From positions 50,840,001-50,904,000 of the forward strand of contig OX597833.1 of the NCBI GenBank assembly GCA_951406725.2: 64,000 nt of DNA. Reading direction: 5' to 3'. Position 1 is the stretch's first letter. Each line of letters opens with the position of its first letter. Positions 8,033 through 9,758 of the stretch are shown here, piece after piece. Position numbers and translations under genes: made by a program. This stretch comes from Octopus vulgaris. Its lineage: Eukaryota. The notes beneath the pieces were generated by a model. The model was given only the letters and a program-made list of their open reading frames with translations. It was not told the DNA's origin and did not search any database.

Positions 8033-9758
8033 TACAAAATTAGAGAATGGAGAAACATACTTAAATCAGTAAAACATCAACTATCCGATGATACTCAATC
8101 CATACTTTAATACACCATTACATATGAGTAAAGGCAATATATAAAATGAAATGAGATATAAAGTAATAGTAAAAAGATAAAGAGATATAAGTAAAAAATT
8201 TCAAATATAATATGCAAATAAATCAAAACTGACAGCTGTTTCGGCAGTGAGGACAGTCATACCTCATTTAACCTATAAGCCATAAAGGCAGGTATAAATG
8301 AGGCATTAACAAGGATGCCCCACGGCCTCTTCAGAGAATTAAATTAAATTTGTTATAATAGTGAAAAATATTATATAATCATATACATATAAATATAAAA
8401 ATATAAAAATGTAAAATATAAAAACTTATACATCATAATGCTACACTTATATAATATAATACACATTTGTACAAAAAGGAAGGTAAACAGAACAAAATAA
8501 AACAAAATATATAACAGTGTATATATTAATATTAATAAGTACCGATATTATACATATTTGGCTAATAGTTTTTTTTATAAAAAAAAAAAAGGCTAACACA
8601 TATGGAGATGAAAAATAATAATTAAATCCGTGGTACAGTTCATAAAATTCTAAAGCTATAAAAGTTAATAAAAATTACTATTAATAATAATAATAATAAT
8701 AATAATAATAATAATAATAATAATAATAATAATAATAAAAATAATAAAAATAGATACAGTTAAGTTAGCACCAAGTCCATCCTTTCAAGATCGAAATAAC
8801 TATAGTTATTTCGATCTTGAAAGGATGGACTTGGTGCTAACTTAACTGTATCTATTTTTATTATTTTTTTATTATTATTATTATTATTATTATTATTATT
8901 ATTATTATTATTATTATTATTATTATTATTATTATTATTAATAGTAATTTTTATTAACTTTTATAGCTTTAGAATTTTATGAACTGTACCACGGATTTAA
9001 TTATTATTTTTCATCTCCATATGTGTTAGCCTTTTTTTTTTATAAAAAAAACTATTAGCCAAATATGTATAATATCGGTACTTATTAATATTAATATATA
9101 CACTGTTATATATTTTGTTTTATTTTGTTCTGTTTACCTTCCTTTTTGTACAAATGTGTATCATATTATATAAGTGTAGCATTATGATGTATAAGTTTTT
9201 ATATTTTACATTTTTATATTTTTATATTTATATGTATATGATTATATAATATTTTTCACTATTATAACAAATTTAATTTAATTCTCTGAAGAGGCCGTGG
9301 GGCATCCTTGTTAATGCCTCATTTATACCTGCCTTTATGGCTTATAGGTTAAATGAGGTATGACTGTCCTCACTGCCGAAACAGCTGTCAGTTTTGATTT
9401 ATTTGCATATTATATTTGAAATTTTTTACTTATATCTCTTTATCTTTTTACTATTACTTTATATCTCATTTCATTTTATATATTGCCTTTACTCATATGT
9501 AATGGTGTATTAAAGTATGGATTGAGTATCATCGGATAGTTGATGTTTTACTGATTTAAGTATGTTTCTCCATTCTCTAATTTTGTAGTATTAATTTACA
9601 GGTAATATTATTACCTTTACCCATTTAATACAATAGATGAACTGATTGCTTGACAATTTCTAACATCTATGTATTAATTTTGTTGGGTACCTATCTAGCA
9701 GTATATTGGATATATATTATCCCATGGTGGGTTGAATTTTCAACCCCTATCTCATTTT
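8033..9758. mobile_element. 1.55-kb near-perfect palindrome (8033-9587) plus a 171-bp unpaired tail, inserted in (TA)n; Penelope-like pLTR architecture
   Basis: Arms 8033-8802 and 8803-9587 are reverse complements with no loop (centre GAAATAACTA|TAGTTATTTC). The differences I saw are (TAA)n and homopolymer lengths plus a substitution. (TA)n lies on both sides. Confidence 0.85.
9276..9400 (+). ncRNA. Type I hammerhead ribozyme-like motif with long stem II (mirror copy on minus strand at 8221-8340)
   Basis: CTGAAGA (9286-9292), stem II GGCCGTGGGG..CCTCACTGCC with inner GCCTCATTTA/TAAATGAGGT, GAAA (9378-9381), palindromic CAGCTG, GTC triplet (9387-9389). Stem I is weak. Confidence 0.7.

Follow-up and report, generated by a model that had tools for sequence, protein, structure and literature searches.

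How a long palindrome without a spacer came to lie in octopus DNA is the question raised by positions 8033-9757 of the window, by which we mean the whole 64-kb stretch of Octopus vulgaris DNA that was analysed. Palindromes that are long, spacerless and near-identical have been described as the least stable class (PMC7999016). A preliminary description had reported such a palindrome here, with near-identical arms of 770 and 785 bp, and it is indeed present, centred at 8802|8803. The unit is most likely a single recent insertion of a TA-targeting, hammerhead-bearing Penelope-like retrotransposon (PLE), truncated and folded back upon itself.

The palindromic unit (8033-9757) consists of two arms and a tail, with (TA)n on both sides. 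The left or mirror arm (8033-8802, 770 bp, minus strand) is an inverted copy of the 3′ end of the element and stops at a tail-free, "short" end. The right or sense arm (8803-9587, 785 bp, plus strand) is a copy of the non-coding, pLTR-like 3′ end of the element. It belongs to a high-copy family and carries no long reading frame. Orientation was read from the strand of the hammerhead motif described below, and the layout is head-to-head and inverted. The arms pair without a mismatch for 66 bp on either side of the centre (8737-8868) and there is no loop. The centre would mark both the 5′ truncation of the right arm and the point of fold-back; no longer copy was seen. The arms are 97.5% identical across 787 columns (BLASTN) and a single substitution separates them, at 8458 vs 9162. 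They differ in length at two sites, a run of A12 vs T10 and an (AAT)n array of 18 vs 23 units (17 nt), which in the right arm is the (ATT)n array at 8871-8939. The one-sided tail reported earlier as 171 bp spans 9588-9757 (plus strand) and measures 170 nt, or 171 with the first T of the adjoining (TA)14 array, in which it ends, included. The tail belongs to the same repeat family as the arm. We found no second copy of the palindromic unit within the 64-kb window.

The unit lies inside a SINE. The 5′ part of this host SINE is at 7749-7872 and its 3′ part at 10008-10086, both on the plus strand. Queries covering them (7745-7875 and 10005-10090) matched 11 and seven other places in the window, respectively, each at 75-85%. 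The SINE family occurs throughout the window and has an internal microsatellite. The two flanking halves are co-oriented and collinear, and in intact copies a (TA)n/(TG)n tract separates the halves at exactly the position that the palindromic unit occupies here. ARAGORN found no tRNA that would confirm the head of the SINE. The left half of the target is a (TA)n-rich tract of about 160 nt (7873-8034), whose last TA (8033-8034) is common to the end of the left arm, and the right half is the (TA)14 at 9758-9785. A target-site duplication cannot be read because the target is itself (TA)n, and the same remark has been made for PLEs (PMC8557442).

The position between two SINE halves, which the preliminary description had given, is thus borne out, but the unit is not alone there. 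A second, unrelated and separate high-copy insert occupies about 9786-9958 on the minus strand. It has a hairpin followed by GAAAC, an internal direct repeat and no intact CUGANGA, so that it is hammerhead-like in degenerate form, and it is possibly another PLE end. Another SINE copy (19040-19660) carries an insert of about 200 nt (19205-19410), with a degenerate hammerhead-like stretch, at the same internal microsatellite position. The internal TA tract of the SINE seems to be a recurrent insertion target.

The layout is not confined to this locus. When we surveyed the window for close inverted repeats, 11 matches reached at least 60 nt, mostly simple-repeat noise. Three of them, the main unit included, read TA, arm, arm, tail, TA. 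One is a 175-bp palindrome (53198-53372) with a 3-nt loop, which reaches 53458 when its 86-nt one-sided tail is included and has (TA)n on both sides. It is probably another PLE stump. The other is a 118-bp palindrome (56419-56536) with a short loop, which reaches 56636 with a 100-nt one-sided tail and lies between (TA)n arrays; its arm terminates in TTGTA, as does the arm of the main unit. A one-armed end related to the 53198-53458 unit abuts (TA)n at about 30013-30095. Away from the TA arrays is a GC-richer hairpin of 263 bp (44963-45225), with arms 94% alike and a loop of about 13 nt, which could be a MITE or some other element. The window also contains a repeat family, partly in tandem units of about 183 bp and 80-93% alike from site to site, at 28642-29566, 34864-35471, 15954-16368, 111-426 and 44280-44629.

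We sampled the dispersed family with 114 words taken from 8941-9950 in 24 listed sequencing runs. In 20 of these, from eight studies, 57-75% of the words were present, and the positive runs include small ones of only 40-141 million letters. Short contigs from four of the 24 runs (X1, X11, X15 and X4) were then placed on 8803-9950, giving 3348, 7338, 1999 and 166 contigs, respectively, counts that include the second insert at 9786-9958. Many of these contigs are less than 99% alike. Run X1 may be the sample of the assembly itself; that X4 is RNA is only a guess. No run recorded as RNA was among those listed to carry the family, which speaks neither for nor against expression. The contigs cover 27 of 30 bins of 8803-9950, the palindrome centre and the TA junction having been skipped as repeats. 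Depth is apparently lower near the centre in X15 and X4, though depth cannot rank the parts of the unit. The family is high-copy in all four runs, and is thus dispersed and multi-copy.

The tail is deeply covered in all four runs, to a degree comparable to the arm. A contig of X4 (record 28, 9560-9746) crosses the end of the arm, of which it includes 28 letters, three short of our 31-letter rule for bridging; this is a strong hint that arm sequence continues into the 170-nt tail within the family. Among the contig ends listed, one in X4 stops at 9591 and passes into (TA)n, about 4 nt from the equivalent of the left-arm stop. Judged from these contigs, the family appears to have two 3′ ends, one with the tail and one without. 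No strand change was seen across the joints in the six joint records from the contig placement.

Letters that are rare in the family tie the two arms together. At 9459, letters differing from the family letter account for no more than 70 of the 57,530 depth units of X1 and 10.5 of the 76,552 of X11, and they are absent from X15 and X4. The rare letter at 9459 is common to both arms, as is a minority letter at 9551. Since both arms carry family-rare letters, one template served for both, and it is unlikely that two separate insertions met head to head. A single template fits fold-back copying at the time of insertion; later arm-to-arm conversion, or an artefact, would fit equally. The one substitution between the arms suggests a young insertion, an age that arm-to-arm conversion could mimic. 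The earlier suggestion of a recent fold-back insertion is upheld by this one difference and by the shared rare letter.

The palindrome could instead be a fold-back artefact of the library or the assembly, with a single arm in the chromosome. A single molecule that had been duplicated would likewise yield near-identical arms with the same family-rare letters. Long reads are known to yield foldback artefacts (PMC12870357), the inverted structures of PLEs are reported to trouble assemblies (PMC8557442), and the centre is outside our contig cover. We nevertheless regard an artefact as very unlikely. The mirror halts at one of the family's natural ends instead of continuing into the flank, and the flanks are collinear halves of one SINE. 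The arms are not the same, differing by 17 nt at the microsatellite, 2 nt at the A-run and one substitution, and the two smaller, looped palindromes share the layout.

Another way to obtain one template for both arms is a normal, one-end PLE insertion to which host replication or repair later added the mirror arm by template switching. Fold-back inversions are a known product of repair, and such an event is compatible with the shared letters. The mirror arm, however, stops about 4 nt or less from the end seen in another copy of the family, no host flank was copied, and the layout is found in three units per 64 kb. We give this history very little credence, and prefer fold-back during insertion.

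The right arm carries a minimal type I hammerhead motif at 9286-9389 on the plus strand. It has the CUGANGA core, a helix II region of 85 nt, GAAA, a C17 at 9389, a self-complementary 8-nt helix III/loop 3, a GUC site and a helix I of only 2 bp. The fold z of the motif is -3.79. The helix II region folds at -38.0 kcal/mol, and the commonest family variant within it, at 9367 (38-63% in three runs), turns a G-U pair into G-C. The mirror copy of the motif is on the minus strand at 8231-8334 (read from 8334 to 8231). A first descriptor that asked for a helix I of at least 3 bp missed the motif at 9286-9389. Relaxed to a 2-bp helix I, the descriptor matches this motif, its mirror copy (8334) and, elsewhere in the window, one unrelated site; it matched none of 5000 shuffles of the unit. 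Rfam gave no match at gathering thresholds over the whole window. At E ≤ 10 over 7600-10200 it gave 23 matches with no hammerhead among them, the best being generic miRNA hairpin models below threshold. A metagenome scan with a 23-nt motif also returned no match. A hammerhead-like core (CUGANGA ... GAAAC) is present at 50035-50110, in unique-looking sequence near TA-rich DNA, and it fails the relaxed descriptor.

A ribozyme motif on each strand had been noted for this locus. The motif is on both strands, but its helix I is only 2 bp, Rfam does not call it, and its core is sequestered in the folded RNA. When we folded a plus-strand read-through RNA of 8033-9758, 765 pairs formed between the arms, and all 19 core positions checked were paired with the other arm. 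Self-cleavage from this locus is therefore unlikely. By symmetry, a minus-strand read-through RNA would behave alike.

The hammerhead also bears on whether the unit is a DNA element. The palindrome (8035-9585) might be a palindromic MITE or a Foldback-type DNA transposon that duplicated a TA target, the "tail" being unrelated flank. TA bounds both ends of the palindrome, as in Tc1/mariner-like elements, and does so in the two smaller units as well, which is trivial beside a TA array. That DNA transposons are present in the window is evident from a fragment of a DDE_3 transposase at 17705-17896 on the plus strand (E 6.2e-07), the sole Pfam match above cutoff in the 137 of 183 frames searched. 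This origin is very improbable. The tail is high-copy, and the family runs 170 nt beyond the right arm, for which the 28 arm-side letters are a strong hint. A hammerhead motif suits an RNA-based element. Further, all three units sit directly on (TA)n on one side and have on the other an extension of 86-170 nt that ends in (TA)n.

PLE insertions are described as heavily 5′ truncated; many carry at the 5′ end a truncated copy in inverted orientation, and one end has a tail of 30-40 bp (PMC8557442). The truncated copy joined in inverted, head-to-head fashion is found here on geometry. The tail is at one end but is 170 nt long, and 86 and 100 nt in the smaller units of the window. A hammerhead with a self-complementary loop 3, near the 3′ end and on the sense strand, is a further PLE trait, which our candidate motif shares under the relaxed descriptor. 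The (TA)n or microsatellite target, a trait of the Neptune and Hydra clades, is also present. Targets of (TA)n are reported for the Naiad and Hydra clades, and a microsatellite bias has been noted for Neptune too (PMC8557442). The preliminary description had implied that the layout was surprising. It is not, being a published insertion pattern of PLEs (PMC8557442, PMC3846280, PMC4209133) that recurs twice in the window. The loopless centre requires no special mechanism of retention.

We infer the enzyme and the order of the steps as follows. The GIY-YIG endonuclease of the element would cut (TA)n inside the SINE. Reverse transcription would be primed at the cut, start at the distal end of the tail (9757) and halt after about 955 nt, short of the coding region. 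The new strand would then fold back and be copied, producing the head-to-head mirror arm. Finally, the mirror arm would be joined to the other TA half at the alternative "short" end (the equivalent of 9587), and the tail would be found on one arm only because of this joining at the "short" end. In published work, the PLE tail is the stretch between two start sites of reverse transcription, and the enzyme cuts AT-rich DNA (Frangieh et al. 2024, PMC11167929). The copy in the window is non-coding and inert as a transposon.

Endonuclease-containing PLEs encode a telomerase-related reverse transcriptase and a GIY-YIG endonuclease in one reading frame. Pfam found neither a reverse transcriptase nor a GIY-YIG domain, and detected no host exon, in 137 of the 183 candidate frames of the window (the longest 140 minus three simple-repeat frames). 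With no such domain linked to the unit, its membership among PLEs rests on non-coding anatomy. The Naiad clade is unlikely, because the full hammerhead core, both halves, is present and Naiads are described as having no canonical hammerhead (PMC8557442). Neptune and Hydra are the candidate clades, and telling them apart needs coding sequence, where the clade-specific Zn-finger linker and reverse transcriptase motifs lie. We also considered a non-LTR retrozyme, in which head-to-tail tandem repeats each carry a type I hammerhead, and rejected it; the copies here are inverted, not tandem.

Several published systems come close. Penelope-13_HM of the Hydra clade (Craig et al. 2021, PMC8557442, supplementary files S1 and S2) has, like our unit, a (TA)n target, an inverted copy, 5′ truncated and about 1 kb long (nt 1-966), at its 5′ end, and a hammerhead on both strands. 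It differs in keeping its coding sequence and in its compact hammerhead, with a 5-bp helix I and a 6-bp helix II, whereas our unit lacks any coding part and has a helix I of 2 bp, a helix II region of 85 nt and a tail of 170 nt. The helix II of our unit is far longer than any in the table of Hydra/Chlamys hammerheads in that source. The endonuclease-containing Penelope of Adineta vaga (Arkhipova et al. 2013, PMC3846280) resembles the unit in its head-to-head inverted pLTR, its palindrome at the junction and its tail on one arm. The palindromic junctions were interpreted there as self-priming, and the copies yield small RNAs. In contrast to our unit, with its arms of 770-785 bp and microsatellite target, the A. 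vaga element has pLTRs of about 200 bp, a 31-bp tail and target duplications of 8-10 bp. The minimal type I hammerheads of metazoan PLEs (Cervera and de la Pena 2014, PMC4209133) share with our motif CUGANGA/GAAA, a G10.1-C11.1 pair and a palindromic loop 3. In truncated copies they occur as nearby pairs on opposite strands, and that of D. virilis has a 2-bp helix I. Their helix II, at 6-8 bp, is much shorter than ours, and the published spacing of opposite-strand pairs is 100-700 bp vs about 950 bp in the unit. Such minimal hammerheads are reported to be inactive as monomers (PMC4209133).

Octopus PLEs are already on record. Naiad_Obim, Naiad_Ovul and Hydra-1_Obim (PMC8557442, supplement) prefer (TA)n as does our unit. 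The Naiads differ from it in having no canonical hammerhead according to that source, and Hydra-1_Obim in the sequence of its hammerhead. A 12-nt motif of the unit had no match in the text of the PMC8557442 supplement, where a line break could hide one. For O. vulgaris, 336 recently active PLE insertions in 31 families have been reported (PMC13282606). The long tail (4-5x) and long helix II mark a family absent from the PMC8557442 supplement as far as its text shows, and the O. vulgaris repeat library of PMC13282606 may hold it. The arms are also long for a copy without coding sequence, compared with the published PLE pattern. Literature searches on long PLE palindromes and on octopus transposable elements listed no paper on this family. 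These differences do not make the unit a new system, the insertion pattern being already known.

As a single locus, the unit is of little weight: it is a young transposon scar in repeat-rich DNA. It is also a clean example of the inverted-end step of PLEs. If host transcription passes through it, the product would be a hairpin of about 765 bp, a substrate for ADAR or Dicer that would sequester its own ribozyme. Near-perfect dsRNA and A-to-I hyper-editing are reported to be unusually abundant in Octopus (PMC5625713). For the frog, that study names a palindromic Harbinger, and we saw no counterpart named in it for octopus. TA-targeting PLEs with tails of 86-170 nt and a very long helix II might routinely fold back and be a main source of Octopus dsRNA and hyper-editing, a proposal that we put forward as a doubtful one. 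If this proposal is true, the genome would be seeded with near-perfect hairpins, of which this 64 kb holds three such units, and the centres of thousands of copies would be a direct readout of the second-strand step of PLEs. If such units are common genome-wide, they would be candidate substrates for ADAR and small-RNA pathways, and a natural experiment on the decay of perfect palindromes in an animal germ line.
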